Below the pieces are notes generated by a model. That model was not told the DNA's origin. It ran no database searches and saw only the letters and a list, made by a program, of their open reading frames with translations. A program made the position numbers and the translations under genes. A stretch of 64,000 nt of DNA from Reyranella sp. GTDB lineage: Bacteria > Pseudomonadota > Alphaproteobacteria > Reyranellales > Reyranellaceae. Positions 1,497-18,969 of this stretch are shown here, one piece after another. Numbering within the stretch: position 1 is the stretch's first letter; every line of letters begins with the position of its first letter. The DNA lies in the NCBI RefSeq assembly GCF_965227665.1, contig NZ_OZ245767.1:1955638-2019637 (forward strand), given 5' to 3'.

Positions 1497-1548
1497 CGGC
1501 TCCGCATTATCGACGATTTTCCTTGAACCAGATTCAGCTCCGTGGATT

Positions 1549-1579
1549 CAATAGATAATTGTCCAGTAATTATCTATAC
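1549..1579. promoter_or_regulatory. two BioR boxes in the bioY-bioB promoter/leader
   Basis: CAATAGATAA (1549..1558) is the reverse complement of TTATCTATTG, an 8/10 match. TTATCTATAC (1570..1579) is a 9/10 match to TTATMKATAA. Both lie 13-43 nt upstream of the bioY ATG at 1592. Confidence 0.65.
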
Positions 1580-1591
1580 TTTGGAGCTCGT

Positions 1592-2158
1592 ATGACTGAG
1601 GCCATCGCCCCCGCAATGCCGGGGGTCCGCTCGGCAGTGAAGACTGCCGCAATGATCGTTCTCGGCGTGGCACTCATCACCCTTTGCGCGAAGCTGCGCG
1701 TGCCCTCCTGGCCCGTCCCGATGACGCTGCACACGCTTGCGGTCATGGCGCTTGCCGTCACGGTGGGACCCCGCCTGGCGGCTGCCACGTTCTGCACCTA
1801 TCTCGCCATCGGGGCCGCAGGCCTGCCCGTCTTCTCGGGAACGCCCGAACGCGGGATCGGACTGGCCTATATGGTCGGCCCGACGGGCGGCTATCTCCTC
1901 GGCTATCTGTCGGCGAGCTGGATCGCCGGCACGCTTGCCCGCGACCGTGGCCCGGTGGGCAGAGCTCTGGCGATGCTGGCGGGCCTTGCCGTGGTCTATG
2001 CGGCGGGCCTGTCCTGGCTCGCGCTCTACGTCCCGGCGAATCAGATCGTCGCACTCGGCTTTGCCCCGTTCATCCTGGGAGATCTCACCAACATTGCCAT
2101 CGTGGCTGTCGGCGGGGCACTGCTCCCGGCGCGCCTGCGCGGGAAGATCGTGCAATGA
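1592..2158 (+). CDS. bioY: biotin transporter BioY (ECF S-component type)
   Basis: Multi-TM protein with BioY-like motifs ([12 protein letters not shown]..., [17 protein letters not shown]). I prefer ATG 1592 (GGAG at 1583) over the TTG at 1559, which lies inside the operator region. The stop overlaps the bioB start as ATGA. Confidence 0.8.
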
Positions 2159-3168
2159 GCCGCCCCGTCGATCCGGTCGGCCCGTCCTACTGCGACCTGC
2201 GTCATGACTGGACAGAGGCTGAAGCGCGCCGCATCCACGATCTTCCCTTGCCCGAACTTCTGTTCAGCGCGCAGGAAGCCCATCGTCGGCACTTCGATCC
2301 GGCGGCGATCGAGACGGCGACCCTGCTGTCGATCAAGACCGGCGGATGTCCGGAGGATTGCGGCTATTGCTCGCAAAGCGCCAGGTGGGACACCGGCGTG
2401 AAGGCGGGCAAGCTGATGCAGGTGGAAAGCGTGCTGGCGGAAGCACGGCGCGCCAAGTCGGGCGGCGCCACGCGCTTCTGCATGGGCGCGGCCTGGCGGA
2501 GCCCGAAAGATCGCGACCTGGAGGCGGTCTGCGCGATGATCGAAGGGGTGAAGGCCCTGGGGCTGGAAACCTGCGTGACGCTCGGCATGTTGACGCCATC
2601 CCAGGTCGAGCGCCTCGCGGAAGCCGGCCTCGACTACTACAACCACAATATCGATACGTCGCGGGACTTCTACGGCGAGATCGTCACCACGCGCCGGATG
2701 GATGACCGGCTGGAGACGCTCGACAATGTACGAGCGGGCGGCATCAAGGTCTGCTGCGGTGGCATCGTCGGCATGGGCGAAACCTCGATCGATCGCATTT
2801 CCATGCTGGTGACGCTCGCGACCTTGGAACGTCACCCGGAGAGCGTGCCCTTGAACATGTGGCAGCCGATCAGCGGGACACCCGTCATGGACACCGCCCA
2901 ACCGGTCGATCCCATCGCGTTCGTCAGACTGGTTGCCCTGGCCCGAATCCTGATGCCGCAAAGCGTGGTGCGGCTGTCGGCCGGACGCGGCGCCATGAGC
3001 GACGAGGCCCAAGCGCTCTGCTTCATCGCCGGCGCCAACTCCATCTTCACGGGAAACGTGCTTCTGACCACCGGCAACCCGGATCGCGACAGAGACGCCC
3101 TTCTGCTGGAGAGACTCGGCATGCGCACGCTCGCAGCGCCTCCATCGGACCCTGCCCCAACGGCGTGA
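2155..3168 (+). CDS. bioB: biotin synthase BioB (radical SAM)
   Basis: Radical-SAM CxxxCxxC motif ([13 protein letters not shown]) and BioB-like sequence along the whole length. Start taken at ATG 2155 within ORF 1684..3168. Confidence 0.9.
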
Positions 3169-3391: not shown

Positions 3392-4702
3392 TCAGAATTC
3401 CATCAGATTGTCGCGGAACAGTTTGTGCGCATAGGCCTTGCGCGTAAGGCCTCGACGCTGCAACTCGGGCACGAGGCCGTCGCAGATTTCCATGATGTAG
3501 CGTCGGTCGAAGTGGGCGTTGAACAGCAGGAAGCCGTCGCCGCCCACCTCCTGCATGATCTCCTGCATCAGGCCGGCAACGTGATCGGGCGTGCCCACCA
3601 GGTCGATGCCCTGCCGGCTGTTGAGCCCGCTCGCCAGCGAGCGCGGCGTCTTGCCGATCCACTTGGCGAGCGAGGACTGGTGCCCGTTGGTCCGCAGGTG
3701 CTCCGGCAGCGGCTCGTCGGGATCGAACTGCGCGAAGTCGATGTTGGTGAGGCGCGACATGCCCGAGAGCTGCAGGTCGAGATGCTTGCCGAAATCCTCC
3801 TGCTCGAGCCGCCGGCGATCGCGCGCGGCTTCCATCGTCGTGTCGACGATCGGATAGGCAAGGAACAGCACCTTGATGTCGTCCGGATTGCGCCCCCAGC
3901 CCGCGGCCTGGCGGCGGATGTCCTCTCGGAAGCTCTTCATGCCTTCGACGGAGACGGCGTTGGTGATGATCGTGTCGGCCCACCGGGACGCGAAGGCCTG
4001 GCCACGAGGCGAGCCGCCGGCCTGGCAGATCGGCACCCTTCCCTGGGGCGAACGCGGCGCGTTGATCGGTCCGCGCACCTTGAAATACTTGCCCTCATGG
4101 TTGATCGGACGGACCTTCCTGCCGTCGGCAAACATCGGAATGGTACGATCGAGCACGACCGCATCCTCGTCCCACGCCTCCCACAGGCGCGTGACCACGT
4201 CGGCGAATTCGTCGGCGACGTCGTATCGCTCGTCGTGCGGCCGCTGGCCGGCATTACCGTAGTTTTCGGCGGCGCCGTCATTGCTGCCGGTGACGCAGTT
4301 CCAGCCGATCCGGCCCTCGGTGACGTGATCCAGCGAGTTGACGAGGCGGGCCAGCAGGTAGGGTGGATACTCCGAAGTCGAGAGCGTCGGCACGAGGCCG
4401 AGATGCTTGGTCGCCATCGCCAGCCAGGGGACCAGCACGGCGGGATCAAGCTTGGGCGAGCTGGCGGCGTACTTGAGATAGGTGTCGTGGCTGCCCTGGT
4501 AGGTGTAGGGCACCATCGAGGAGTCCTCGATGATCATGTAGTCGAAGCAGCCGCGCTCCAGTCCCTTCGCCAGGTCGACGAAGATGTCAGGCATCATCCA
4601 GCGATGCTTGTCGTATTCGGTGCCGGGCCACATCGAGCGCCACGCCTTCGGGCCATAGCCCTGCGACAGGAACCAGGCGAGATGGAAATGATCCTTTGCC
4701 AT
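3392..4702 (-). CDS. LLM-class FMN-dependent monooxygenase, NtaA/SnaA/DszA family (copy 1)
   Basis: 436 aa. N-terminus FHLAWFL..., then CFDYMIIEDSS, GRIGWNCVTGSND and KYFKVRGPINAPRSPQGRVPICQAGGS, typical of nitrilotriacetate monooxygenase component A-like enzymes. Confidence 0.85.
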   Translation of the reverse strand: MAKDHFHLAWFLSQGYGPKAWRSMWPGTEYDKHRWMMPDIFVDLAKGLERGCFDYMIIEDSSMVPYTYQGSHDTYLKYAASSPKLDPAVLVPWLAMATKHLGLVPTLSTSEYPPYLLARLVNSLDHVTEGRIGWNCVTGSNDGAAENYGNAGQRPHDERYDVADEFADVVTRLWEAWDEDAVVLDRTIPMFADGRKVRPINHEGKYFKVRGPINAPRSPQGRVPICQAGGSPRGQAFASRWADTIITNAVSVEGMKSFREDIRRQAAGWGRNPDDIKVLFLAYPIVDTTMEAARDRRRLEQEDFGKHLDLQLSGMSRLTNIDFAQFDPDEPLPEHLRTNGHQSSLAKWIGKTPRSLASGLNSRQGIDLVGTPDHVAGLMQEIMQEVGGDGFLLFNAHFDRRYIMEICDGLVPELQRRGLTRKAYAHKLFRDNLMEF

Positions 4703-4704
4703 GT

Positions 4705-5415
4705 TCAGGCGACCGCCTTCTTCGGCAGGCTCGCGACGAACTCGGCCTGGCTCATCGCCAGGTCGGGGCGAAAGCCACGGTCGCGATAGAATTTCTCGTA
4801 GATCTTGAATTCCTCCAGCACGCGCCGCAGTTCGGTGACAGCATCGTCATGCAAGTCGACGCGCGCATCGATGTCGAAGTGATCGGGCTCGGAGGCCACG
4901 AAGATCGCGGCCGACCGTTCGGTGAGATGGCCCTCGTTGCCGACTTGCCCGCCGGCATCGCGTCCGCCTTCGAGCGCGGCCAACAGCCGGAACTCGAGGT
5001 CGGCGCCGGGATCTGCGAGAAAACCCGCAACGATGCCGTCCAGCACCTCCTGGCCCGCCAGCACATTGCCGAAAGCCACGAAGCCATCGCCCTCGTGGTG
5101 CCCCGCCCAGGCCCGGCAGCCCGGGCCGGTATGGGCGCAGGTCCTGCCCTCACGGTCGATGATAGCGATCTGGCGCCAGTCATGGTCGGGATCGCAGGCC
5201 TTGAGCGCCGCCATCACGCCGGCCGGCGCCATGCCCTGCTCCAGCAGTTCGAGCGCGATCAGGTCGTTGTCCCGCTTCACGTATGCCTGCGTCTTGCAGA
5301 CGCCCGCACCGAATCGGATGCCCTCGCAGCGGCCGCCGGCCGCGATCGAGAAGGTCGTGATGCCGAGGCCGAGACGGCCGGTGTTGGGGCAACGTGCAAT
5401 GATCGAGAAGGTCAT
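4705..5415 (-). CDS. DUF1028 family protein (Ntn-hydrolase fold), paralog 4, subtype B
   Basis: MTFSIIARCPNTGRLGLGITTFSIAAGGRCEG... with conserved RQIAIIDREG, GWAGH and LEGGRDAGGQ. Start overlaps the stop of paralog 3. A 2-nt gap separates it from the monooxygenase. Confidence 0.8.
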   Translation of the reverse strand: MTFSIIARCPNTGRLGLGITTFSIAAGGRCEGIRFGAGVCKTQAYVKRDNDLIALELLEQGMAPAGVMAALKACDPDHDWRQIAIIDREGRTCAHTGPGCRAWAGHHEGDGFVAFGNVLAGQEVLDGIVAGFLADPGADLEFRLLAALEGGRDAGGQVGNEGHLTERSAAIFVASEPDHFDIDARVDLHDDAVTELRRVLEEFKIYEKFYRDRGFRPDLAMSQAEFVASLPKKAVA

Positions 5416-6119
5416 GGCCTCGGCTCCTTCATCGAGGCGATGAACGCCTCCTGCCCGATCGCGCCGCGCGGATTGCGTCCACGGTCGGCGTAGTAGCCCT
5501 CGTACTGCTTGTAGACCGTCCAGACACGGCGCAACTCATCGACCGCCTTGTCGTGCAGGTCGACACGCAGGTCGATATCGGGATGGATATGGCGCGACGA
5601 GACCTGAAGTGCCGCCGAGCGCTCCGTCCGATGGGCCGTCGCATTGCCCTGCCCGCCCGCGTCGCGGCCATATTCCAGGGCCATCAGCAGGCGATGCTCC
5701 AGATCTGCCTCGGGTTCGGCAAGGAAGCCCTCGGCAATCGCCTCGGCGACGTGCTGGCCGCGCAACCCGTTGCCGGTGGAGATGTAGTTCTCGCCCGTGA
5801 CGTCACCCGCCCAGCCGCGCACGTTGGCGCCGGTATAGGCGGCCACCGCGCCGCTGCGGTCGATCACGCCGATCTGGCGATAGCTGTGGTAGGCGTCGTT
5901 GGCCTTGAGTTGCTCGAGGACCGCGTGCGCGCCGAGCCCCTGTGCGAGAAGGCGCAGCGCGATCGCATTGTTGTTCTCGTTGGCATTGGCCTGGCTCACC
6001 GTCACCCCGGCGTTCGATCGGGTCGAATGGGCGTAGCGGCCCACCGTGATCGAATAGGTGGCGATGCCGATACCGAGGCGACCGGTCTTGGCGCAGCGTC
6101 CAAGGATGGTGTAGGTCAT
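5412..6119 (-). CDS. DUF1028 family protein, paralog 3, subtype A
   Basis: MTYTILGRCAKTGRLGIGIATYSITVGRY..., LKANDAYHSYRQIGVIDRSG, GWAGD, LEYGRDAGGQ. 4-nt overlaps at both ends. Confidence 0.8.
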   Translation of the reverse strand: MTYTILGRCAKTGRLGIGIATYSITVGRYAHSTRSNAGVTVSQANANENNNAIALRLLAQGLGAHAVLEQLKANDAYHSYRQIGVIDRSGAVAAYTGANVRGWAGDVTGENYISTGNGLRGQHVAEAIAEGFLAEPEADLEHRLLMALEYGRDAGGQGNATAHRTERSAALQVSSRHIHPDIDLRVDLHDKAVDELRRVWTVYKQYEGYYADRGRNPRGAIGQEAFIASMKEPRP

Positions 6120-6835
6120 GCCCGCTCCTTGACGCGCCGGGCGTCGAGCTGCTTCGCGAAGACGTCCTGCGGGATGGCTTTTGACGGGTCGGTATCCCGG
6201 CCGCGATAGAATTCCTCATAGAGCTTGAATTCCTCGAGCACGCGCCGCAGCTCATCGACCGCCGCTTCATGGACGTCGACGCGAACGTCGACATCGGGAA
6301 AATCGCACCGGTCGACGACCTTGATCGCGGCCGAGCGCTCGGTACGGTGGGCGTCGGCCGGCCCCTGCCCGCCGGCATCGCGGCCGCCTTCGATGGCCCG
6401 CAGCAGGCGGTATTCCAGCGCATCGTCGGGATTCATAAGGAAGCCCGCGACCATTGCGTCGAGCACCTGCGGACCGAGGAGGCCGTTGCCGAACACGACG
6501 CAATCGGCCACCTCCTTGTGACCCGCCCAGCCACGGCAGCCGGGGCCGGTATGGCCGGCGACCTTGCCATCGCGGTCCATGATCGCAATCTGGCGGAAAC
6601 CGTGCTCGGTGTCGTTGCCGGCAAAGATCTCCATCACCCGCGTGGGCCCGTAGCCCTGCGCCAGGAGCTTGACGCCGAGCGGATCGTTGGTGCGGTTGGG
6701 AAACGCCTGCGTCTTGCAGACGCCGACATTGGCCATCACGCCTTCGCAACGTCCGCCCACCGCCAGCGAATAGGTGGCGATCCCGAGGCCCAGACGGCCC
6801 GTGCGCCGGCAACGCCCGATCACGGAGTAAGTCAT
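6116..6835 (-). CDS. DUF1028 family protein, paralog 2, subtype B
   Basis: MTYSVIGRCRRTGRLGLGIATYSLAVGGRCEG..., FRQIAIMDRDG, GWAGH, IEGGRDAGGQ. 4-nt overlaps at both ends. Confidence 0.8.
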   Translation of the reverse strand: MTYSVIGRCRRTGRLGLGIATYSLAVGGRCEGVMANVGVCKTQAFPNRTNDPLGVKLLAQGYGPTRVMEIFAGNDTEHGFRQIAIMDRDGKVAGHTGPGCRGWAGHKEVADCVVFGNGLLGPQVLDAMVAGFLMNPDDALEYRLLRAIEGGRDAGGQGPADAHRTERSAAIKVVDRCDFPDVDVRVDVHEAAVDELRRVLEEFKLYEEFYRGRDTDPSKAIPQDVFAKQLDARRVKERA

Positions 6836-7548
6836 CGCGTGCCCTCCTGCGCCTGGGCAAGCGTCTGGGCGAAGGCGTACTGCGGAACCGCGTCCTTCGG
6901 GTTCTTCGCTCTCTCCTTGTAGTAGCCGCGATAGAGTTCGTATTCCTCGAAGGCGCGTCGAAGTTCCTCGACCGCCGTGTCGTGCAGGTCGACGCGCAGA
7001 TCGAGTTCGGCGTGATCGTAGTCGCCGTAGACCATCACGGCCGCCGACCGTTCGGGGAGAGGACCATCGTTGCCCGCCTGACCGCCCGCATCCCGTCCCG
7101 CTTCGATCGCCGCGAGGAGTCGGCGCTCGAACGAGATCCCGGCTGCATCTTCATAGGCTTTCGCCATGGCATCGATGACCGCTTTACCCGCCAGCACGTT
7201 GCCCATGGCGACATAGCCGTCACCTGTGACGTGGCCCGCCCAGCCCCGGTTCTTCGGACCGCTATAGGCCGCGAGGCGGCCCAGGCGGTCGATCACCGCG
7301 ATCTGACGGAACTCGTGGTTGGCATCGTTGGCTTTCAGCTCGGTCAGCACGTGCTCGGGCGCGAAACCCTGCGCGAGCAGCCGGAGCGCCAGCGGATTGT
7401 TGCCCTGGTTCACGAACGCCTGGGTCATGGTCGCGCCGGTGTTGCCGCGCAGCCCGGTGCAGTAGAGGCCCACCGTGATCGAATAGGTCGCGATGCCGAT
7501 GCCCACCTGGCCGCTCTTCGGGCAGCGGGCGAGCAGTGTGAAGGTCAT
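6832..7548 (-). CDS. DUF1028 family protein, paralog 1, subtype A
   Basis: Start taken at Met151 of ORF 6832..7998 (MTFTLLARCPKSGQVGIGIATYSITVGLY...), which aligns with the other three paralogs. Its ATG overlaps the LysR stop as ATGA. Confidence 0.8.
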   Translation of the reverse strand: MTFTLLARCPKSGQVGIGIATYSITVGLYCTGLRGNTGATMTQAFVNQGNNPLALRLLAQGFAPEHVLTELKANDANHEFRQIAVIDRLGRLAAYSGPKNRGWAGHVTGDGYVAMGNVLAGKAVIDAMAKAYEDAAGISFERRLLAAIEAGRDAGGQAGNDGPLPERSAAVMVYGDYDHAELDLRVDLHDTAVEELRRAFEEYELYRGYYKERAKNPKDAVPQYAFAQTLAQAQEGTR

Positions 7549-8552
7549 GTGCGTCTGTCTCCCGCCGATCTCTGGGCCGATCCTTTGGCCGCCGCACGCA
7601 CGGAGCGTGCCGAACCGCCGGCCGCGGCCTCGCGCTTCACCGGCGCATAAGCAAGGTCGTGCAAATCCTGGAACTCGCCTTGCAGAAACCGCAGGAACTC
7701 TTCCGCCGCCAGCGGAAGCTGTCGCGCCGAATGCACGATCGCGTCGATGCTTGCGTTGTTCACCAGCCGGTCGCGGATCGGCACGGCGACCAGTTCGCCC
7801 GAGCGCAGATTGTCCCAGGCCGACAGGCGCGAGAGAAAGGTAATGCCATGATTCACCTTCACGAATTCGACCCTGAGCTGGAACGAATTGGTATCGAGCG
7901 ACGGTGCAATATGGATACCGGCAGCCTTGCACGCGACGTCGATCAGGATCCTGCTGCCGGTATGCTTCATCGGCGACGCGATGGGATAGGCGGCGCAATC
8001 GGCCAGCGAGACACGCGGGCGGCCGGCCAGGGGATGATCTGCCGACATTACCGCGACCAGGGGCTCCCGCATCTTGAACACCGTCTCCAGCTCGGCCTCC
8101 GCAGGCGGATAGAAGGCCAGACCGATATCGGTACGGCCCTCGCGAACCGCCGCCACCACTTGGTCGGAGCCGTCGATCGTGATTTCGAACTGAATGCCGG
8201 GATAGCGCCCGCTGAAACGGGCTACGGCGCGCGGCAGCAGGTGGGGCACCAGCGCTTCGATCGACCGTATGCTGACGGTACCGCGGCGCAGCCCCTTCAG
8301 CGCGTCGATTTCCGAGCGGACGCGTTCGACCTGGCGCAGGTTGATCTGGGCGTGGCGCAGGAAGATCTCCCCGGCCGACGTCAGTTCGACGCCGCGCGCA
8401 TGGCGATGGAACAGGGGAACGCCGAAATCCTCCTCGAGCTTCTGGACCTGCCGACTGAGCGCGGACTGGGCAATGTGCAACTCCTCCGCCGCCTCGCGAA
8501 TCGATCCGTGCCGCGCAATCACTGAGAAATAGCGCAAAGACTGGTTGATCAT
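7545..8552 (-). CDS. LysR-family transcriptional regulator with an Ala/Arg-rich C-terminal tail
   Basis: MINQSLRYFSVIARHGSIREAAEELHIAQSALSRQVQKLEEDFGVPLFHR is a LysR wHTH, followed by a substrate-binding domain. About 35 extra C-terminal residues run up to the ATGA junction with DUF1028 paralog 1. Confidence 0.85.
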   Translation of the reverse strand: MINQSLRYFSVIARHGSIREAAEELHIAQSALSRQVQKLEEDFGVPLFHRHARGVELTSAGEIFLRHAQINLRQVERVRSEIDALKGLRRGTVSIRSIEALVPHLLPRAVARFSGRYPGIQFEITIDGSDQVVAAVREGRTDIGLAFYPPAEAELETVFKMREPLVAVMSADHPLAGRPRVSLADCAAYPIASPMKHTGSRILIDVACKAAGIHIAPSLDTNSFQLRVEFVKVNHGITFLSRLSAWDNLRSGELVAVPIRDRLVNNASIDAIVHSARQLPLAAEEFLRFLQGEFQDLHDLAYAPVKREAAAGGSARSVRAAAKGSAQRSAGDRRT

Positions 8553-8579
8553 TTCATGGACTCCGACTGCCCCGAGACT

Positions 8580-8596
8580 GATGCCGCATCGGCATC
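8580..8596. promoter_or_regulatory. 17-bp perfect palindrome GATGCCGcatCGGCATC (contains T-N11-A), candidate LysR operator
   Basis: Read directly in the 131-bp divergent intergenic region, 28 nt upstream of the LysR start and 88 nt upstream of the first DUF4392 gene. Confidence 0.45.
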
Positions 8597-8683
8597 GCAT
8601 CAACGCCTAAATGGCGCTTGTCGGATCACCGGCCGAAGCGCCCAATCCGACTCTGACAGCGAGAGGGGATCGTCATTCTCGAC

Positions 8684-9694
8684 ATGGTAGGAGAGGCCGT
8701 CGACCGGCTGATCACGATCGAAGCCAAGAACCACGGCATGCCGCACGGCATCCTGCTGCCGATGTACCTCGCGGCCCGCAAGGTCGCAGGCGACAAGCCG
8801 GTCACGATGGCGGCGGCCAAAGGCCTGCAGAAGGTGCTCGGCAAGGGCGACGTCGTCTTCATCATGACCGGCGCGGGATACGAGCCCACCATGCCCAAGG
8901 GGGAGAGCGACGGCCCGCCGGGCGCCGCCTCTCTCGCGCGCATCCTCTATCGCGGCCTCGGCGCCGTCCCGGTCTTCGTGAACGAGGCCTGCCATGCCGA
9001 TCCGATCGTGGCCTCCAGCGAGGCCGCCGGCCTGATGGTGAAGCCGTTCGAGCAGGCGCGCGATCGTCATCTCGGTGCTGCCATCGAGAACGCACCGGAG
9101 GACCAGTCCAAGATCGACGCGTGGATCGCCGAGATCTACGCGAAGTACCAGCCCAAGGCGGTCGTTGCAGCGGAACGCCTCGGCGCCGGGGCCGACGGCA
9201 ACGTCCATACCGCGACCGGCCTGCCGCTTACCGGCCCGGAGTCCAAGTTCCAGGGCTGCGTCGACATCGGCGGCGTCGTCACCGAGGCCAACAAGCGCGG
9301 GATCTTCTCGGTCGGGATCGGCGACCATGGCAACGAGCTTGGCTTCGGCACGATCTACGACACGGTCGTCGAGACCATGCCCAAGGGCAAGGCGCTCGCC
9401 ACCGTCGTGAAGACCGACGTCGTGATCCCGGCGATGATGTCGAACTGGGGCTGCTACGGCATCGAGGCGTGCCTCGCCTATCTCCTGAAGAAGCCGCAGC
9501 TCATCCATTCGCCGGATATGGAAAAGCGCATCGTGCAGGCCTGCCTCGACGCCGGCGGCCTCGAGGCGATGTACTGCACGACAGAATTCCTGGTCGACGG
9601 CCTCGATGGCGAGACGTCGATGGCCTGCATGCAGTTCCTGTCCAACATCGTGCGCAAGAATCTCGAGCCGCCCGACGCGGGCCTCACGCATTGA
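8684..9694 (+). CDS. DUF4392 (D-glutamate cyclase-like) domain protein, paralog 1
   Basis: 336 aa. Carries motifs I associate with DUF4392: GESDGPPGAASLARIL, VGIGDHGNELGFG, MSNWGCYGIEA. Confidence 0.7.
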   Translation: MVGEAVDRLITIEAKNHGMPHGILLPMYLAARKVAGDKPVTMAAAKGLQKVLGKGDVVFIMTGAGYEPTMPKGESDGPPGAASLARILYRGLGAVPVFVNEACHADPIVASSEAAGLMVKPFEQARDRHLGAAIENAPEDQSKIDAWIAEIYAKYQPKAVVAAERLGAGADGNVHTATGLPLTGPESKFQGCVDIGGVVTEANKRGIFSVGIGDHGNELGFGTIYDTVVETMPKGKALATVVKTDVVIPAMMSNWGCYGIEACLAYLLKKPQLIHSPDMEKRIVQACLDAGGLEAMYCTTEFLVDGLDGETSMACMQFLSNIVRKNLEPPDAGLTH

Positions 9695-9729
9695 TCGAAA
9701 ACTTCAAACTGACTTTGTAGAGGCAAATC

Positions 9730-10758
9730 ATGGCTATCGACGAGATCGTCGGCGATTCAATCGACCGCGCCATCAACATCGAGATGCGCTTCCGCGTGGG
9801 ACTGCCGCGCGGCGTCACCTATCCGCTCTACGAGGCGGCGCGCACGAAGCAGAAGAAGCCGCTCGCGTGGCTGGCGGCCAAGCTGCTGAAGGACTCGATC
9901 AAGCCCGGCGACAACGTGTTCGTCATCACCGGCGCGGGAACGCCGCCCGGCCTGCCCGCCGGCGAGACCGATGGCCCCCCGGGTGCGGCGGCTATTGCAC
10001 GTGCGATCGAGTTCGGCCTGGGCGGCAAGCCGATCCTGATCAGCGAAGAGCGCAACATGCCGGCGGTCATCAAGTCGACCGAGGCGGCCGGCCTCGCCGT
10101 CTACGACGAGGCGCTGTTCAAGCAGCGCCGCTCCTGCGCCATGGCGATCAACTTCCCGCTTGGGGATGCTGCCGGAAAGAAGGCCGCGGCCGCACTCATC
10201 AAGAAATACAAGCCGGCCGCGATGGTGTTCATCGAGAAGGTCGGGCCCAACATCAAGGGCGTCTACCATTCGATCATGGGCACGCCCCGCACGCCGGACA
10301 AGATCGCCAGTGCCTACCATCTGGCGGACCAGGCCAAGACGGCCGGCATTCCCACGATCGGCATCGGCGATGGCGGCAACGAGATCGGATGCGGCGTCAT
10401 CAAGGAGGCGGTGGCGGCGATCCAGCCGTTCGGCAAGGACTGCGGCTGCCCCTGCCACGGCGGCGTTGGCACGGTTACTGAATGTGATGTGCTGGTCTTC
10501 GCTGCCGTGTCGAACTGGGGTGCCTACGGCATCGCGGCGGCGCTGGCCGGCCATTTGGGAGACCGCGAGATCCTGCACGACGAAGCGACGGAACTCCGGA
10601 TCGTGCAGGCGAGCGTCGATGGCGGGGCGATGGACGGGGCCTATTCCCGCCTCATCCCCTACGTCGACGGCACGTCGGACAAGATGCAGGCCGCGTTGAT
10701 CACGATGCTTCATCAGATCGTCGAGAACGGGCTGAAGGAATACGACCGAGGGTTCTGA
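9730..10758 (+). CDS. DUF4392 (D-glutamate cyclase-like) domain protein, paralog 2
   Basis: 342 aa. GETDGPPGAAAIARAI, IGIGDGGNEIGCG, VSNWGAYGIAA. Also has a CGCPCHGG cluster that paralog 1 lacks. Confidence 0.7.
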   Translation: MAIDEIVGDSIDRAINIEMRFRVGLPRGVTYPLYEAARTKQKKPLAWLAAKLLKDSIKPGDNVFVITGAGTPPGLPAGETDGPPGAAAIARAIEFGLGGKPILISEERNMPAVIKSTEAAGLAVYDEALFKQRRSCAMAINFPLGDAAGKKAAAALIKKYKPAAMVFIEKVGPNIKGVYHSIMGTPRTPDKIASAYHLADQAKTAGIPTIGIGDGGNEIGCGVIKEAVAAIQPFGKDCGCPCHGGVGTVTECDVLVFAAVSNWGAYGIAAALAGHLGDREILHDEATELRIVQASVDGGAMDGAYSRLIPYVDGTSDKMQAALITMLHQIVENGLKEYDRGF

Positions 10759-10780: not shown

Positions 10781-12358
10781 ATGACCAAAGGGTTCCGGAT
10801 GACGAGCGGCCAGGGAAGCAATCGGGGCATGACGCGTCGCGGCTTCGGGGCGGGCGCTCTCGGTGCAGGCCTTATACTGGGCACAGGCCGCGCGCCTGCG
10901 CTGGCACAGGGCAGGCGCGACCTGCGCGTCGGCACCTGGGGCGGCGAGTTCGGCAATCTCAGCCCGGTGATCCGCTCGGACATCCAGGGAAGCCTGGTGA
11001 TGTACAACGTGTTCGACGGGTTGGTGAGCATCAACTACAAGGACCGCGCCATCGTACCGAACATGGCGCTGGAGTGGAGCAACCCCGATCCGCTGACCTG
11101 GCGCATCAAGATTCGCGAAGGCGTGAAGTGGCAGAAGGGCTTCGGCGAATTCACCGCCGAGGACGTCGTCTATACCTTCGAGTTCCACATGTCCTCGAAG
11201 AGCTTCCAGATGGGAACCGCGCTGTTCCCGATCGACACGGTGAAGAGCGACGGCAAGTACGTGGTCGAAATGAAGACCAAGCAGCCGTTCGGCGCCTTCC
11301 CCGGCGTCACCATGGGATACGGCGGCACGATCATCTCGTCGAAGGCGCACAAGGAGATGGGCAACGACGCCTACAGCGCCACGCCCGTCGGCAACGGCCC
11401 CTTCCAGATCGAGAGCAAGAAGGGCACGGAGATCGTGCTGGCCAGGCATCCCGACTACTGGCGGCCGGGCTTCCCCAAGCTCGACCGCGTCGTCTATCGC
11501 GCCATCCCCGACTCGACCACCCGCCTGCAGGCGCTGCAGAAGGGTGAACTCGACTTCGTGACCCATCCCGATCCCAAGGACATGAAGGCCCTGCGCAAGG
11601 ACGCGAAATACACGATCAATTCGACGCCGGGCTGGTCGTGGGACTACCAGCAGTTCAACCTCAAGGCCAAGCCGGACGCGCCCTACCAGAACAAGCTGGT
11701 GCGCCAGGCGATCTCCTATGCGATCGACCGCGAGGCGATCGTGAACGAGATCTACTACGGCGAGGCGATCCCCACCGACAACCAGATCCCCGCCGGCTAC
11801 ATGGGCCATCGTCAGCCGATGCTGAAGTACCCGAAGAACGGCGACCTCAAGAAGGCCAAGGAGTTGATGGCCCAGGCCGGCGTGAAGGGCTACGAGGTCG
11901 AGGTCATCACCTCCGACAAGGACTGGCTGCGCAAGGAGCTCGAGCTGGTCGCCGCGATGGTCAGCCAGATCGGCATCACCTACAAGATCAAGAGCATGGA
12001 CATGGGCGGCTTCAACAGCCTGTGGCTCAACAAGAAATTCGACCAGCATCTCGAAGACATCACCCTGGTCGCGCCCGACCCCGACGCGACGTCGTGGTGG
12101 TTCCTGAACAGCAAGGGAAACGCCTCAGGCTACAGCGTGGCGTCGATGGACGCGATGCTGGACGGCGCGCGCAGCGAACTCGACCCGGCCAAGCGCGAGG
12201 CCATGTACCACAAGATCGTCGACACGACGCTCGAAGAATGCCCGATCATCTATCACTGCAACACGAACAACATCCAGATCTACAACAAGAAGCTGGTGGG
12301 CTTCGAACCGGCGCCGCAGGAATACACCGAGAAACTCGACGCGGTCTCGTGGTCCTGA
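10781..12358 (+). CDS. ABC transporter substrate-binding protein, family 5 (DppA/OppA/NikA type), Tat-type signal
   Basis: The twin-arginine leader (MTRRGFGAGALGAGLILGTGRAPALA) is followed by a peptide/nickel SBP-like sequence. Start is ambiguous (10769 TTG, 10781 ATG or 10829 ATG). Confidence 0.85.
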   Translation: MTKGFRMTSGQGSNRGMTRRGFGAGALGAGLILGTGRAPALAQGRRDLRVGTWGGEFGNLSPVIRSDIQGSLVMYNVFDGLVSINYKDRAIVPNMALEWSNPDPLTWRIKIREGVKWQKGFGEFTAEDVVYTFEFHMSSKSFQMGTALFPIDTVKSDGKYVVEMKTKQPFGAFPGVTMGYGGTIISSKAHKEMGNDAYSATPVGNGPFQIESKKGTEIVLARHPDYWRPGFPKLDRVVYRAIPDSTTRLQALQKGELDFVTHPDPKDMKALRKDAKYTINSTPGWSWDYQQFNLKAKPDAPYQNKLVRQAISYAIDREAIVNEIYYGEAIPTDNQIPAGYMGHRQPMLKYPKNGDLKKAKELMAQAGVKGYEVEVITSDKDWLRKELELVAAMVSQIGITYKIKSMDMGGFNSLWLNKKFDQHLEDITLVAPDPDATSWWFLNSKGNASGYSVASMDAMLDGARSELDPAKREAMYHKIVDTTLEECPIIYHCNTNNIQIYNKKLVGFEPAPQEYTEKLDAVSWS

Positions 12359-12400: not shown

Positions 12401-13351
12401 ATGTGGTCCTATCTCGGACGTCGCCTGATTCAGGTGCCGCTGGTCCTGCTCGTCGTGTCGCTGATGACGTTCGCCATCACGCGCGCGACGCCGGGCGATC
12501 CGGCGACGATCATGCTGGGCATGCAGACGTCGCCCGAGGCGGTGACGGCAATGCGCGCGGAGTTCAACCTGGACCGTTCGCTGCCCGAGCAGTACGCGCT
12601 GTGGATCGCCAAGGTTGCGACCGGCGATCTCGGCCGGTCGATGCGCCTGAACGATCGCGTCACGACCCTGATCGCCGAGCGGCTGCCGATCAGCCTGCAG
12701 CTGGCCTGTGCCGGCATGCTGTTCGCGCTCGCGGTCTCGATCCCCCTGGGTGTGATTGCGGCGCTGCGGCGCAACAGCTGGATCGATTATCTCTGTACCG
12801 GCTACACGGTGATGGGCTTTGCCGTGCCGAATTTCGGCCTGGCACTGATCCTGATCTACGTCTTCTCGATCCAGCTCGATTGGCTGCCGATCACCGGCAT
12901 CGGCTCATCCGAGGCCGAGGCAGGCGGTTTGTGGAAGCGCTACAGCCCCTTCATCCTTCCCGCCGTTGCGCTGGGCGCCCTGCAGACGGCGATGCTGACC
13001 CGCCTGCTGCGCTCCAGCATGATCGACGTCCTGTCGCAGGACTACATGCGCACCGCACGCGCCAAGGGCCTGCTGCCCGCGACCATCGTGATCATTCATG
13101 CGCTCAAGAACGCGATGATCCCCTTCGTCACCATGGCCGCCGTCCAGTTCGGCTACATGATCGGCGTCCAGGTGACGATCGAGTACATCTTCGCGGTGCC
13201 CGGCATGGGCTCGGCGGTGCTGAATGCCGTGGTCAACCGCGACTTCCCGGTGATTCAGGGCTTCACGCTGGTGATCGCAGTCTTCTTCCTGCTGATGAAC
13301 ATCTTCGCGGACATGATGTACGCGCTGCTCGATCCGCGAATCCGGTACTGA
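12401..13351 (+). CDS. ABC transporter permease (DppB/OppB type)
   Basis: 316 aa, six predicted TM segments and an EAA-like loop (YMRTARAKGL). Confidence 0.85.
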   Translation: MWSYLGRRLIQVPLVLLVVSLMTFAITRATPGDPATIMLGMQTSPEAVTAMRAEFNLDRSLPEQYALWIAKVATGDLGRSMRLNDRVTTLIAERLPISLQLACAGMLFALAVSIPLGVIAALRRNSWIDYLCTGYTVMGFAVPNFGLALILIYVFSIQLDWLPITGIGSSEAEAGGLWKRYSPFILPAVALGALQTAMLTRLLRSSMIDVLSQDYMRTARAKGLLPATIVIIHALKNAMIPFVTMAAVQFGYMIGVQVTIEYIFAVPGMGSAVLNAVVNRDFPVIQGFTLVIAVFFLLMNIFADMMYALLDPRIRY

Positions 13352-13352
13352 G

Positions 13353-14252
13353 ATGGCCGACGCGCGCGCCCTGCCCCTGCAATTCCGCGGCTCGCTGGCG
13401 CTGGCCGTGCAGCAGTTTCCGCGCAACCGCGCCGCCACGGTCGGCCTGGCGATCCTGCTCACGATCTGCTTCGCCGCCGCCTTCGCTCCCTGGGTCGCGC
13501 CTTACGATCCGATCCAGATCAAGCTCTCGATGAAGCTGAAGCCGCCGTCGTTCGAGCACCTCATGGGCACCGATCATTTTGGCCGCGACGTGTTCTCGCG
13601 CATGCTCTGGGGCGGACGCACCTCGCTCTCGGTCGGCCTGCTGGTCGTGGGCTTCGCCTTCGTGCTGGGCGTGCCGCTCGGTCTTGCGTCGGGCTATTTC
13701 GGCGGCAAGGTCGACAATGCCCTGATGCGGCTGGTCGATGCCTTCCTCACCTTCCCGCCGCTGCTGCTGGCCGTGGCGCTGGTCGGCCTGCTGGGACCCG
13801 ACATCAAGAACGTGATGCTGGCGCTGGGCCTCGTGCAGGCGCCGATCCTGGCGCGCATGGTGCGCGGCAGCACCCTGGCCGTGCGCGAGGATGTCTATGT
13901 GACGGCCGCCCGCGCGCTGGGCGCCAGTCCGCTGCGCATCGTGCTCTCGCATCTGCTGCGCAACATGGTTTCGCCGATCGTCGTCCAGCTCACCGTCGTC
14001 TTCGCGGCCGCCGTCGTTTCGGAGGCATCGCTCAGCTTCCTGGGCTTCGGGACGCAGCCGCCGGCGCCCAGCTGGGGCCGCGACATGAGCGAAGCCCGCC
14101 GCTTCCTGGGCGACGCGCCGTGGATGTTCCTGGCGCCGACCTCGATCATCGCGGTCTGCGTCCTCAGCATCAACTTCATGGGCGATGGTCTGCGCGATGC
14201 GCTCGACCCGCGCGCCTGGCGCACGCGCCGCAGCGTGGGAACCGAATCATGA
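13353..14252 (+). CDS. ABC transporter permease (DppC/OppC type)
   Basis: 299 aa, N-terminal OppC-like segment and TM core (YVTAARALGASPLRIVLSHLLRN). Confidence 0.85.
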   Translation: MADARALPLQFRGSLALAVQQFPRNRAATVGLAILLTICFAAAFAPWVAPYDPIQIKLSMKLKPPSFEHLMGTDHFGRDVFSRMLWGGRTSLSVGLLVVGFAFVLGVPLGLASGYFGGKVDNALMRLVDAFLTFPPLLLAVALVGLLGPDIKNVMLALGLVQAPILARMVRGSTLAVREDVYVTAARALGASPLRIVLSHLLRNMVSPIVVQLTVVFAAAVVSEASLSFLGFGTQPPAPSWGRDMSEARRFLGDAPWMFLAPTSIIAVCVLSINFMGDGLRDALDPRAWRTRRSVGTES

Positions 14253-15231
14253 GCCTGCTGCGCGTCCGCAACCTCCACACCCGCTTCGCCACGGATCGCG
14301 GCGACGTGCGCGCGGTCAATGGCGTGTCGTTCGATCTCGAAGAGGGCGAGATCCTCGGGCTGGTGGGCGAAAGCGGCAGCGGCAAGAGCGTGACGGCGCT
14401 CTCGATCATGCGGCTCGTGCCCGAGCCGCCGGGCCACATTGCCGCCGACAGCCTGGCCTTCGACGGACGCGAGCTGCTGGGCCTCAGCGAAGCCGAGATG
14501 CGCGAGGAGCGCGGCTCGAGCATGGCGATGATCTTCCAGGACCCGATGCGCTCGCTCAATCCCGTGCTCACCATCGGACGGCAGATCACCGAGGTGCTGC
14601 GCCGCCACCAGAAGCTCGACAAGCCGGCCGCGAAGCGCCGCGCCATCGAGCTGCTGGAGACGGTCGGCATTCCCTCGGCGGAGAAGCGCCTCAGCGCCTA
14701 TCCGCACCAGTTCTCCGGCGGCATGCGCCAGCGCGTCATGATCGCGATCGCGCTGTCCTGCAATCCGCGCCTGCTGATCGCCGACGAGGCCACGACCGCG
14801 CTCGACGTCACCATCCAGGCGCAGATCGTCGACCTGGTGAAGCGCCTCACGCACGAGCGCGGCACCTCGGTGATCTGGATCAGCCACGATCTCGGCGTCG
14901 TCGCGGGCCTCTGCGACAAGGTCAACGTCATGTATGCGGGCAACGTGGTCGAGTCCGGTCCGATCCGCGAGTTGTTCCACCGCCCCAGCCATGGCTACAC
15001 GCTGGGCCTCATGGGCTCGACGCCGAGAGTCGACGGCACCGGCGTGCGCCGCCTGACTCCCATCGAAGGCATGCCGCCCAGCCTGATCGAGCCGATCCCG
15101 CTCTGCCCGTTCCTGCCGCGCTGCCGCGTCGCCGTTCCCGCGTGTCAGACGGTGCCCCCGGAACGCCGCGATTTCGGGGGGAATCACTGGGCCCGCTGCC
15201 TCGCGGATCTGGCACCGGGAGATCGGGCGTC

Positions 15232-15235
<4 letters not shown>
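14249..15235 (+). CDS. ABC transporter ATP-binding protein (DppD/OppD type)
   Basis: Walker A GESGSGKS, signature FSGGMRQR, Walker [13 protein letters not shown], and a C-terminal oligopeptide-type extension. The ATG at 14249 overlaps the permease stop. Confidence 0.9.
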
Positions 15236-16198
<963 letters not shown>

Positions 16199-16206
<8 letters not shown>

Positions 16207-17506
16207 GCCGTTTCATCTCGCCTGGTTCCTTGGCCAGAGCTTCGCCTCCAAGAACTGGCGCTCGATGTGGGCCGGCAGCGCGTCCGACGTCCAGCGGTGG
16301 ATGATGCCCGACCTCTTCATCGACCTCGCCAAGGGGATGGAGCGCGGTTGCTTCGACTACATGATCATCGAGGACTCCTCGAACGTGCCCTATACCTACA
16401 AGGGCAACCACGATACCTACCTGCAATACGCGCAGGGCACGCCCAAGCTCGACCCGCCGGTCCTCGTGCCATACCTGGCACAGCACACCACGCATCTCGG
16501 CCTCGTCCCGACGCTCTCGGTTTCGGAGTACCCGCCCTATCTCGCGGCGCGCCTCATCAATTCGCTCGACCATGTCACCGAGGGCCGTATCGGCTGGAAT
16601 TGCGTCACCGGGAGCAACGACGGCACCGCGCAGAACTACGGCCACGAAAAGCACCGGCCGCATGACGAGCGCTACGAGGTCGCCGACGAGTTCGCCGACG
16701 TCGTCACCAGGCTCTGGGAAGCCTGGGATGAGGATGCGGTCGTGCTCGATCGCGACACCCCGATGTTCGCCGACGGCAAGAAGGTCCGGCCGATCAATCA
16801 CGAGGGCAAGTATTTCAAGGTGCGCGGCCCGATCAACGCGCCGCGCTCGCCTCAGGGACGGGTGCCGATCTGCCAGGCGGGGGGCTCGGCGGCCGGCAAG
16901 ATGTTCGCGTCGAAGTGGGCCGACACCATCATCACCGAAGGCTCCAACGTCGCGAAGATGAAAGCCTATCGCCAGGAGGTGCGCAGCCATGCCGCCTCGA
17001 TCGGCCGCAATCCGGACGATATCAAGGTGCTATTCCTGTGCTCTCCGATCGTCGACACGACGATGGAAGCGGCGCGCGAGCGGCGCCGGCTGCAGCAGGA
17101 GGATTCGTTGAAGTACGTCGACATGCAGCTGGCCGGGATGTCGCGACTGACCGGCATCGACTTTTCCAAGTTCGATCTCGACGAGAACCTGCCGCTCACG
17201 CTGACGACCAACGGCCACCAGTCCTCGCTCGCCCGCTGGCTCGGCAAGCCCCTGCGCGAGATCGTGCGCGGTTACGCCGCCAAGGGCAGCCTCGATTACA
17301 CCGGCACGCCCGAGCATGTGGCGGGCGTGATGCGCGAGGTCATGGAAGAAGTGGGCGGCGACGGCTTCCTGATCTCCGATACGCCCATCGACCGCCGCGG
17401 CGTGATGGAGGTCTGCGACGGGCTGGTGCCGGAGCTGCAACGCCAGGGCCTGACCCGCAAGGCCTATGCCCACAAGCATCTGCGCGACAACCTGTTGGAA
17501 TTCTAG
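16199..17506 (+). CDS. LLM-class FMN-dependent monooxygenase, NtaA/SnaA/DszA family (copy 2)
   Basis: Aligns end to end with the protein encoded at 3392..4702, with long identical runs such as RLWEAWDEDAVVLDR and KVRPINHEGKYFKVRGPINAPRSPQGRVPICQAGGS. Start taken at MPKPFHLAWFL (16199); 16184 is also possible. Confidence 0.85.
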
Positions 17507-17764: not shown

Positions 17765-17849
17765 TGGTACCCCCGGTCGGGCTCGAACCAACACTCCGTG
17801 AGGAACCTGATTTTGAGTCAGGCGCGTCTACCAATTCCGCCACGGGGGC
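17765..17849 (-). tRNA. tRNA-Leu (anticodon CAA)
   Basis: Folded by hand from the reverse complement GCCCCCGTGGCGGAATTGGTAGACGCGCCTGACTCAAAATCAGGTTCCTCACGGAGTGTTGGTTCGAGCCCGACCGGGGGTACCA. It has a 7-bp acceptor stem, anticodon loop CTCAAAA, a long variable arm, a TTCGAGC T-loop and an encoded CCA. Length 85 nt. Confidence 0.9.
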
Positions 17850-17933: not shown

Positions 17934-18782
17934 TCAGGCGCGCAGCCTCTCGGCGTGCCATCTCAGATGGTCTTCGATGAAGGTCTGGATGAACCAGTAG
18001 GAATGGTCGTAGGCCTCGTGCCGTCGCAAGATCAGCTCCTGTCCGGCGCTTGCGGCCGCCGCTTCGAGCGCGTCGGGCCGCAGCTGGGGTGCGAGGAACT
18101 GGTCCTTCAGGCCCTGGTCGACGAGGATCGGGCCTGCGAAACGGTTCCCCTGCTTCAACAGCTCGCTCGCATCCCATGCCGCCCAGCGCGCACGTTCCGG
18201 GCCGAGATAGTTGCCGAAGGCCTTTTCGCCCCAGGGCACGGCGACGGGATTGCAGATCGGCGCGAAGGCCGAGACGGACCGGTAGGCCTGCGGATTCTTC
18301 AAGGCGACCACAAGGGCGCCATGGCCGCCCATCGAGTGACCGAACACGCCGCGCCGGGCCGCATCGACCGGAAAGGTCGCCTCGACCAGTGCAGGCAGTT
18401 CGCGCGTCACATAGGAGTACATGCGATAGTTCCGCCGCCACGGCTCGGCCTCGGCATCGAGGTAGAAGCCCGCGCCCGTGCCGAAATCCCAGTCGTCCTC
18501 CTCGCCCGGCAGGCCGAGACCGCGCGGGCTCGTATCCGGCGCCACGAGCATGAGACCGAGCTCGGCGGCATATCGCAAGGCATTTGCCTTCATCATGAAG
18601 GTCTCTTCCGTACAGGTGAGACCCGCCAGGAAGTAGAGCGCCGGGAGTGGCCGCGCCGACGCGTTCGACGGAACGAACACCGAGAACCTCATCTCGACGC
18701 CGATCTCCGTCGAGGCATGGCTGTAGAAGCCGATCGTCCCGCCGAAGCAGGCCTGCTCGCTCCGCGTCGTCATCCCGGCCAT
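17934..18782 (-). CDS. fghA: S-formylglutathione hydrolase (esterase D family)
   Basis: [11 protein letters not shown]..., [35 protein letters not shown]. Start taken at [10 protein letters not shown] (18782); 18773 is an alternative. Confidence 0.85.
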
Positions 18783-18969
18783 CTGCTCACCACACTCAAC
18801 GGCTACACGGCCTTCTGAATACAGGAAGGCGGTGCCGAGCACAGCGCTTTGGAAGCCATTGTGCAAGCGAACAATCAGCTTGAAGTCCCACAGGCGCGCC
18901 GTTCATATCCGCGCCCCGGAGTGGCACCGTGTGCGCTCCCGTCTCTCTCATTCGACCCAGAGGTGTTAC

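Follow-up and report, generated by a model that had tools for sequence, protein, structure and literature searches.

The window analysed here, 64,000 nucleotides of Reyranella sp. (RefSeq assembly GCF_965227665.1, contig NZ_OZ245767.1, positions 1,955,638 to 2,019,637 of the forward strand), carries two tandem genes of the DUF4392 family, A and B, at the head of an operon for a Dpp/Opp-type ATP-binding cassette (ABC) importer. Bacterial DUF4392 proteins can be placed firmly as enzymes of importer-linked catabolic operons, for which we infer the direction of the pathway and the substrate class, small amino-acid-like nitrogen compounds; it is equally firm that in this lineage DUF4392 works together with DUF1028. 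A and B would be non-redundant cytoplasmic metalloenzymes of the DUF4392/TON_0340 fold within a LysR-controlled breakdown cassette, and, tentatively, DUF4392 would supply a binuclear Mn/Mg C-N hydrolase or cyclase step in the breakdown of an imported amino-acid derivative. What is new here is a catabolic operon, ordinary in form, that is built from two enzyme families without an assigned reaction.

Paralog A lies at 8684..9694 (plus strand, 336 residues) and paralog B, the Cys-motif type, at 9730..10758 (plus strand, 342 residues). The Pfam profile search assigns both to PF14336 (GLUCM-like_C, formerly DUF4392), with 193.9 bits for A (E 5.6e-57) and 206.2 bits for B (E 9.9e-61) against a gathering cut-off of 27.9 bits, which bears out the domain proposed in an earlier sequence-only reading of this DNA. 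PF14336 is the sole Pfam match in either protein at E <= 0.01, and both are single-domain. The exact coordinates of the pair and its divergence are likewise confirmed, with 36% identity over the full length (BLASTP E 3e-60), and both copies look intact. The motifs GESDGPPGA, VGIGDHGNELGFG and SNWGCYGI in A correspond to GETDGPPGA, IGIGDGGNEIGCG and SNWGAYGI in B; the shared motifs of the sequence-only reading are thus present in both, except that A has VGIGD rather than IGIGD. Neither protein matches any family in the NCBIfam search, and the NCBI label 'glutamate cyclase domain-containing protein' carried by DUF4392 relatives should not serve as a guide to function.

The only solved relative of B, by sequence (E 8e-28 in the PDB) or by fold, is TON_0340 of Thermococcus onnurineus (PDB 4FC5, 4DWZ, 5GKX, 5GL2-4; 'probable Mn-dependent phosphatase'), which shares its family, its fold and its six metal ligands with A and B. 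TON_0340 is a homodimer that binds two Mn2+ or Mg2+ ions, or three Zn2+ ions, through six acidic residues (PMC5132392). In the alignment these residues (E59, D61, E115, D157, E161 and D246) are all kept in A and B; the residues in B are E79, D81, E169, D214, E218 and D313, and A has aligned equivalents. The pattern EDEDED is invariant in 121/121 DUF4392 copies from 83 loci. With every metal ligand kept in all 121 copies, a degenerate pseudoenzyme among A and B is ruled out. The AlphaFold2 models reach predicted local distance difference test (pLDDT) values of 96.8 for B and 96.5 for A. Foldseek, run with the model of B, A being modelled only, matches the TON_0340 chains at E 9e-21 to 7e-17 with template modelling (TM) scores of 0.88-0.90 on the target, and the next matches lie in the noise (E > 1e-3). 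Judged by ligand conservation only, A and B would each have an intact six-carboxylate site that holds two Mn2+ or Mg2+ ions, and both would be expected to bind these metals and to carry out metal-dependent hydrolysis.

The plus-strand unit comprises eight genes: A, B, a family-5 substrate-binding protein (SBP5), two permeases, two ATPases and an NtaA-like monooxygenase. Spacing is tight throughout, with gaps of 35 base pairs (bp) between A and B (GAGG upstream), 22 bp between B and the SBP gene, 42 bp between the SBP gene and permease 1 and 1 bp between the permeases; permease 2 and ATPase 1, and ATPase 1 and ATPase 2, overlap by 4 bp, and ATPase 2 and the monooxygenase gene by 8 bp. No convincing terminator is seen between A and the monooxygenase gene at 16199-17506, in a scan that is little informative for high-GC DNA. 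The short gaps and overlaps uphold the proposed position of A and B at the head of an operon. The SBP gene (10781..12358, plus strand; the open reading frame (ORF) is open from TTG 10769) encodes a protein with a twin-arginine-like signal (MTRRGFGAG...) and a PF00496 match at E 2.5e-83. It is followed on the same strand by a DppB/OppB-type permease (12401..13351), a DppC/OppC-type permease (13353..14252), ATPase 1 (14249..15235) and ATPase 2 (15232..16206). Their domains are read from the Pfam matches of the orthologous genes at a related locus (L001), with which the window ORFs are collinear: PF19300 and PF00528 for permease 1, PF12911 and PF00528 for permease 2, and PF00005 and PF08352 for ATPase 1, the domains of ATPase 2 being taken from the L001 ortholog in the same way. 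The importer is accordingly of the Dpp/Opp type, with a family-5 SBP, two BPD_transp_1 permeases, one with OppC_N, and two ATPases with an oligo_HPY C-terminus. The SBP stays below every NCBIfam equivalog cut-off (best NikA/Opp5A and GsiB; top 153 bits against 600), so that no characterised specificity (DppA, OppA, NikA, GsiB or the opine binders) is assignable from NCBIfam, and its PDB relatives are of several kinds: an unnamed SBP, AapF, GsiB/YliB, AgaA and DppA.

The minus-strand unit runs divergently from the same control region in the order lysR, four DUF1028 genes and NtaA-family monooxygenase 1. The LysR-family regulator (7545..8552, minus strand; PF00126 and PF03466) is divergent from A and B, and a LysR gene occupies the equivalent position in most related loci. 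Between lysR and A lies a control region of about 130 bp (8553..8683), in which a promoter scan, of little use in high-GC DNA, gives no sigma-70 consensus match. The four DUF1028 paralogs, all on the minus strand, are paralog 4 (6832..7548, N-terminal MTF..., PF06267 E 2e-53, overlapping the lysR stop codon by 4 bp), paralog 3 (6116..6835, E 4e-49), paralog 2 (5412..6119, E 3e-48) and paralog 1 (4705..5415, E 1e-50; PDB 2IMH at E 4e-11). They score 165-182 bits against the PF06267 cut-off of 26.2, the copies are 49-56% identical to the first, and 4-bp overlaps join them to each other and to lysR. All four begin M-T-(F/Y)-(S/T), which places a putative N-terminal nucleophile (Ntn) Thr directly after Met, and the fold of 2IMH is one that we take to be Ntn. 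The retention of four copies suggests a hetero-oligomer or four specificities. These DUF1028 partners, in four tandem copies on the opposite strand, were missed by the sequence-only reading, as were the two NtaA-like monooxygenases that flank the cluster.

The monooxygenases belong to the NtaA/DmoA family of flavin mononucleotide (FMN)-dependent enzymes: number 2 (16199..17506, plus strand) is the last gene of the plus-strand operon and scores 396 bits against TIGR03860, number 1 (3392..4702, minus strand) is the last minus-strand gene and scores 399 bits, and both exceed the subfamily cut-off of 279.7 bits. The solved structures that match them best are DszA, DmoA and YtnJ. No flavin reductase gene is seen inside the cluster, to which the search was confined. 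Only Reyranella-type loci have these monooxygenases, and most DUF4392/DUF1028/SBP5 cassettes lack them; their role is probably to lengthen the pathway, not to define it.

Recurrence in other genomes carries the link between DUF4392 and import. A scan of one genome per species gives at least 564 relatives, from which 80 loci were fetched and their ORFs clustered and mapped. Among the 79 non-redundant loci, two or more DUF4392 genes are present in 24, and tandem copies lie side by side in 14; a transporter gene lies within 3 kb in 42/79 and an SBP5 gene within 3 kb in 21/79. The association with SBP5 importers that had been proposed from the window thus recurs elsewhere. Four arrangements can be told apart. 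Arrangement (i), that of the window, is LysR | A (with or without a third type) and B | SBP5 ABC | one to six DUF1028, and it occurs at loci L001, L002, L008-L012, L041 and L054. DUF4392, DUF1028 and SBP5 also come together in a metagenome contig with four DUF4392 genes (L091), in Falsiroseomonas sp. HW251 (L092, GCA_050563545.1, 1-21023), where 21 kb hold seven DUF4392 genes, six DUF1028 genes and two to three SBP5 systems, and in an Anaerolineae metagenome-assembled genome (MAG) with the order M24-DUF1028-SBP5-2xDUF4392-permeases.

Arrangement (ii) runs from a LysR gene through a HIBADH-like dehydrogenase, an aldehyde dehydrogenase (ALDH), DUF4392, an MJ0158/SelA-like pyridoxal phosphate (PLP) enzyme annotated 'selenocysteine synthase' and a further DUF4392 to an SBP3 amino-acid ABC importer. 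Genomes of Rhizobium, Bradyrhizobium, Paraburkholderia, Caballeronia, Trinickia, Pantoea and Pseudorhodoferax carry it, as does a Sinorhizobium plasmid (L024-L027, L032, L035, L045, L046 and L089 9492-18431). Tblastn matches at two places per record suggest that it may also be carried on Bradyrhizobium plasmids. In arrangement (iii), found in Clostridia-like genomes, a PAS_6/HTH_22 regulator, RidA, a single B-type DUF4392, a TAXI-type tripartite ATP-independent periplasmic (TRAP) transporter and an M24 + Creatinase_N protein follow one another in this order; the B-type protein of this arrangement is present on about 195 contigs. Arrangement (iv) pairs TctC-type systems with DUF4392 and M24 or RidA, as in S. 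meliloti pSymA (LysR | DUF4392-TctC-TctB-TctA-RidA).

The enzymes next to DUF4392 outside arrangements (i) and (ii) were surveyed in a Pfam census of 135 same-strand neighbours. After transport components, the most frequent families are PALP (7), RidA (6), M24 + Creatinase_N (4), Hydantoinase_B (3), Amidohydro_3 (3), 2,4-diaminopentanoate-dehydrogenase-like (3), Asp/Glu-racemase/Amdase-like (3), Creatininase (2), KDGP aldolase (2) and FGGY kinase (2); DUF1445 does not figure among these leading families. The PLP partners fall into four distinct lyase families, all below equivalog cut-offs: a Ser/Thr-dehydratase type, nearest to threo-3-hydroxy-L-aspartate ammonia-lyase, BhcB or EutB; a D-Cys-desulfhydrase family, nearest to D-cysteate sulfo-lyase; the DgaE family; and an MJ0158-like family. 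Beta-elimination is the reaction of the characterised relatives of the first three, and the MJ0158-like family has no assigned function. Amide and lactam hydrolases that accompany DUF4392 elsewhere are M24, PxpABC, HyuAB and creatininase. In Komagataeibacter nataicola (L087 4243-9378) the order is Ser/Thr-dehydratase-like PALP-DUF4392-YjgF/RidA-PxpB-PxpC-PxpA, with PxpABC as ATP-dependent 5-oxoprolinase, and this cluster is a bacterial genomic link of DUF4392 to lactam metabolism. A Methylomirabilota locus (L042) has HyuA-HyuB-unknown-DUF4392. Paenibacillus thalictri (L056 6238-14344) and a Clostridiales MAG (L072) share SBP5 ABC-DUF4392-DgaE-like-KDGP aldolase-FGGY kinase, an arrangement that resembles a D-glucosaminate-type route to which a DUF4392 step of unexplained role has been added.

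A type and B type are separately conserved clades. A-type relatives form a tight alphaproteobacterial clade (60-96% identity), and B-type relatives, at identities down to 51%, occur in Alphaproteobacteria, Bacillota, Armatimonadota and others, often as the sole copy at the locus; in Bacillota, Chloroflexota and archaea the B type is widespread and frequently present as a single gene. The fixed differences between the two adjoin three ligand motifs: GDHGNE in A versus GDGGNE in B (H215 versus G215), ER versus EK after a ligand Glu (R165 versus K170), and SNWGCYG versus SNWGAYG (C257 versus A265). Since these differences stand beside the ligand motifs, they point to A and B acting on different substrates or on successive steps rather than being redundant. 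Every A-type locus among those compared has an SBP5 61-94% identical to the window SBP, so the A type and the SBP appear to be inherited together. A-type genes adjoin another paralog, the exceptions being L048 and L090 (a Mesorhizobium locus in which an insertion sequence (IS) fragment follows).

The cysteine cluster CGCPCHGG (10441..10464, plus strand) occupies residues 238-245 of B as an insert of eight residues that A and TON_0340 lack, and, as the sequence-only reading had noted, occurs in the second protein only. Its treatment there as a peculiarity of the second copy is not sustained. CxCPC is present in 88/106 B-type relatives against 0/105 A-type relatives, and CxCxC in 54/117 unique DUF4392 copies, drawn from many deep groups of bacteria and archaea; a common state of this kind rules out the cluster as a novelty of B. 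The motif is probably ancestral and lost in several lineages, including the A type. No conserved further Cys or His completes a four-ligand site, and three Cys and the Pro alone tell the two forms apart; the His of CGCPCHGG is not conserved, most relatives having CQCPCGA. Because some B-type proteins have no such motif, the insert would not be strictly needed for catalysis; it may form an accessory metal or redox site and, on a topological guess only, might lie behind the sheet, on the far side from the metal site.

The proposed route can be set out as follows. A small peptide-like or amino-acid-derived nitrogen compound would enter through the Dpp/Opp-type importer and be processed by the four Ntn-type amidohydrolases of the DUF1028 family and by both DUF4392 enzymes, with the two NtaA-like flavin monooxygenases extending the route in Reyranella. 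DUF4392 would use a metal-activated attack at a carboxyl or amide carbon to open, close or cleave an amide, lactam or amidine-type C-N bond. The product would be a free alpha-amino acid that is then deaminated, elsewhere by PLP beta-eliminating lyases and RidA. A and B may associate, as the TON_0340 dimer would allow and as the heterodimer idea of the sequence-only reading had it. C-N hydrolysis or cyclisation is favoured because the two-metal hydrolytic centre of TON_0340 is open to solvent and has a general-base Glu, with Mn-dependent hydrolysis that needs E59 and D157 as a precedent (PMC5132392), because the only whole-protein activity linked to the domain in animals is reversible lactam formation from D-Glu (PMC5339696), because the neighbours repeatedly include openers of lactams and cyclic amides as well as amide hydrolases, and because the PLP lyases and RidA that recur beside DUF4392 need a free alpha-amino group.

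Several points weigh against this assignment and keep it tentative. The sole measured activity of TON_0340 is that of a very weak phosphatase, not of an amidase (PMC5132392), and the mouse cyclase activity may reside in the DUF1445 domain. Many loci encode other amide or lactam hydrolases, and DUF4392 might then perform, for example, epimerisation or dehydration. Neither a PLP lyase nor RidA is encoded in the window's own cluster, so that the deamination logic is taken from other loci, and the neighbour census draws on ORFs called by length in 80 loci chosen by similarity. Neither a characterised bacterial homolog nor a known substrate turned up in NCBIfam, in the PDB by sequence and fold, or in the literature, and in this respect the substrate context that the sequence-only reading called unexplored stands. 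The literature search gave no account of a DUF4392-DUF1028-SBP5 cassette or of any bacterial DUF4392 function; among full texts on DUF4392, DUF1028, DUF1445, TON_0340, MJ0158 and D-glutamate cyclase, only PMC5132392 and PMC5339696 are relevant.

On the one set of direct biochemical data for a stand-alone DUF4392 protein, A and B would be Mn-dependent phosphatases like TON_0340, dephosphorylating a small pathway metabolite that is made or imported. TON_0340 releases phosphate in a Mn/Mg-dependent manner that is lost in E59Q and D157L (PMC5132392), an activity to be set beside the D-glutamate cyclisation that was the only one named in the sequence-only reading. All-carboxylate two-metal sites are, moreover, common among phosphoryl-transfer enzymes. 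In the P. thalictri and Clostridiales loci DUF4392 also stands beside an FGGY kinase and a lyase of the DgaE family, the characterised member of which acts on a 6-phosphate. The measured phosphatase activity is, however, very low (kcat/KM ~190 M-1 s-1 on adenosine monophosphate) and unspecific across 20 compounds (PMC5132392), the window cassette and most related loci have no kinase, and ABC, TRAP and tripartite tricarboxylate (TTT) importers carry unphosphorylated solutes; a phosphatase step between import and amide hydrolases makes little sense, and we regard this assignment as very unlikely. Quite unlikely, too, is a metal-dependent racemase or epimerase that stabilises an enolate with its two metals and turns the imported compound, or products of it, into the stereoisomer that later enzymes require, A and B serving two stereocentres or two substrates. 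A generic stereo-inversion step would suit many different contexts, the mammalian enzyme acts on D-Glu (PMC5339696), and partners with D-configured substrates do occur, namely the D-Cys-desulfhydrase family, the DgaE family (substrate D-glucosaminate, a D-2-amino acid) and the D-aminoacylase-like Amidohydro_3 proteins. Yet the mouse enzyme showed no racemase activity on glutamate (PMC5339696), several loci have a separate Asp/Glu-racemase-like gene, some PLP partners are nearest to L-specific enzymes such as threo-3-hydroxy-L-aspartate ammonia-lyase, and a catalytic acid/base pair is not evident.

The pairing of A and B could also mean an obligate heteromer acting as a single enzyme, one copy catalytic and the other structural or regulatory. 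The homodimeric state of TON_0340 is compatible with this, and A-type genes nearly always adjoin a paralog at gaps of 11-50 bp, with the order A then partner conserved, while the B type occurs alone. All 121 copies, A and B included, nevertheless keep the metal ligands and the conserved cavity motifs, so that neither protein looks dead; the partner of A varies (B type, third type or both), A stands alone in L090, and in many genomes a B-type protein functions without a second copy. An obligate heteromer is therefore unlikely. Highly improbable is a cassette for metal or sulfur acquisition, in which a metal chelate or S-conjugate would be imported, the monooxygenases would cleave C-S or C-N bonds and DUF4392 would handle the metal or the conjugate. 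The best sub-threshold NCBIfam matches of the SBP to nickel/NikA-type and glutathione GsiB binders, the place of DszA, DmoA and YtnJ in sulfur-scavenging routes, the tight binding of Mn, Mg, Ca and Zn by TON_0340 (PMC5132392) and the Cys cluster of B would agree with it. Against this, all SBP matches fall far below equivalog cut-offs, only Reyranella-type loci contain the monooxygenases, the adjacent genes include none of a sulfur or metal regulon, and the partners of DUF4392 elsewhere are classic amino-acid catabolic enzymes.

The C-N hydrolase or cyclase assignment can be carried one step further, to a form that is rather doubtful: DUF4392 and DUF1028 would together make a new two-family enzymatic route for imported peptide-like or lactam-type compounds, with specialised paralogs as hetero-oligomers and the ancestral CxCPC binding an extra metal or Fe-S cofactor. 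If that were true, the ligand of the cassette would reveal the physiological reaction of the DUF4392 half of DGLUCY, the mammalian D-glutamate cyclase, and of TON_0340; otherwise the cluster is just another catabolic operon, specific to its substrate, of an alphaproteobacterium from soil. For DUF4392, which occurs in bacteria, archaea and vertebrates, a structure has been solved and there is literature on human disease associations, but no reaction or physiological substrate is agreed on. DUF1028 likewise has no assigned function. Knowing the ligand would give a function to both of these widespread families, and it could settle which domain of mammalian DGLUCY does what. The bacterial system offers a handle on this question through an inducible LysR-controlled operon, a dedicated conserved SBP and one to seven paralogs per locus.

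On its left the cluster is bordered by a GntR-type regulator, BioY and BioB (837-3168), and on its right by a tRNA-Leu(CAA) at 17765-17849. Beyond this lie two ORFs named from their translations only, 17934-18866 (minus strand), which we take to be esterase-D/S-formylglutathione-hydrolase-like, and 18832-21321 (plus strand), presumably Tex-like. No mobility genes are seen near the cluster in the window; in the plasmid collection, homologs are present on symbiosis plasmids of rhizobia. The nearest genomes are Reyranella/Reyranellaceae MAGs, and L054 has a copy 97% identical to B. The entry 'hypothetical protein OSTOST_09749 [Ostertagia ostertagi]' (P0052), a partial protein filed under a nematode, shares 95% identity with B and is most likely bacterial (Reyranella-like) contamination of the Ostertagia ostertagi assembly. 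At L001 a 50-residue ORF is called between the A-type and B-type genes (5707-5859), where the window has its 35-bp gap only; it is probably spurious or lineage-specific.

Two known catabolic systems resemble the wider DUF4392 contexts. Ectoine and hydroxyectoine clusters combine Ehu/Ueh transporters with the racemase-like EutA, the dehydratase EutB and the M24 hydrolase EutD/DoeA, and DUF4392 loci of several phyla have a similar toolkit of an importer, M24 + Creatinase_N, EutB-like PALP, an Asp/Glu-racemase-like protein and RidA. By analogy this suggests that such loci may break down a cyclic amino-acid derivative. All matches from DUF4392 loci to ectoine equivalogs are well below cut-off, we know of no ectoine cluster that includes DUF4392 or DUF1028, and the window cassette has an SBP5 system and Ntn-type hydrolases instead. 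In Salmonella, D-glucosaminate is degraded through DgaE and DgaF. The P. thalictri and Clostridiales loci, whose DgaE-family match is just below the subfamily cut-off (361 against 385 bits), show DUF4392 feeding such a PLP beta-elimination route; the window has no DgaE-type arrangement, and the SBP of that arrangement is 25% identical to the window SBP.

Closer relatives are the two characterised DUF4392 proteins. TON_0340 shares the conserved cavity motifs ETDGPPGA, GDGGNEIG and SNWGAYG with A and B, which are about 70 residues longer through an N-terminal helical extension and internal inserts; the CxCPC insert is found in B and not in TON_0340, for which no operon context is reported. Mammalian DGLUCY (C14orf159, 9030617O03Rik; EC 4.2.1.48) has DUF4392 as its C-terminal half, reported as 36% identical to TON_0340. 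The mouse enzyme makes the lactam 5-oxo-D-proline from D-Glu, reversibly, and this was measured on the full-length DUF1445 + DUF4392 protein (PMC5339696), not on the DUF4392 domain to which the sequence-only reading had credited it. DGLUCY is a two-domain mitochondrial protein whose activity has been mapped to neither domain, whereas A and B have no DUF1445 and, on their predicted architecture, fall outside the two-domain definition of 'D-glutamate cyclase'. Unlike DGLUCY, bacterial DUF4392 genes stand in importer-linked catabolic operons; its substrate, an acidic D-amino acid, fits the amino-acid-type contexts of these bacterial genes.

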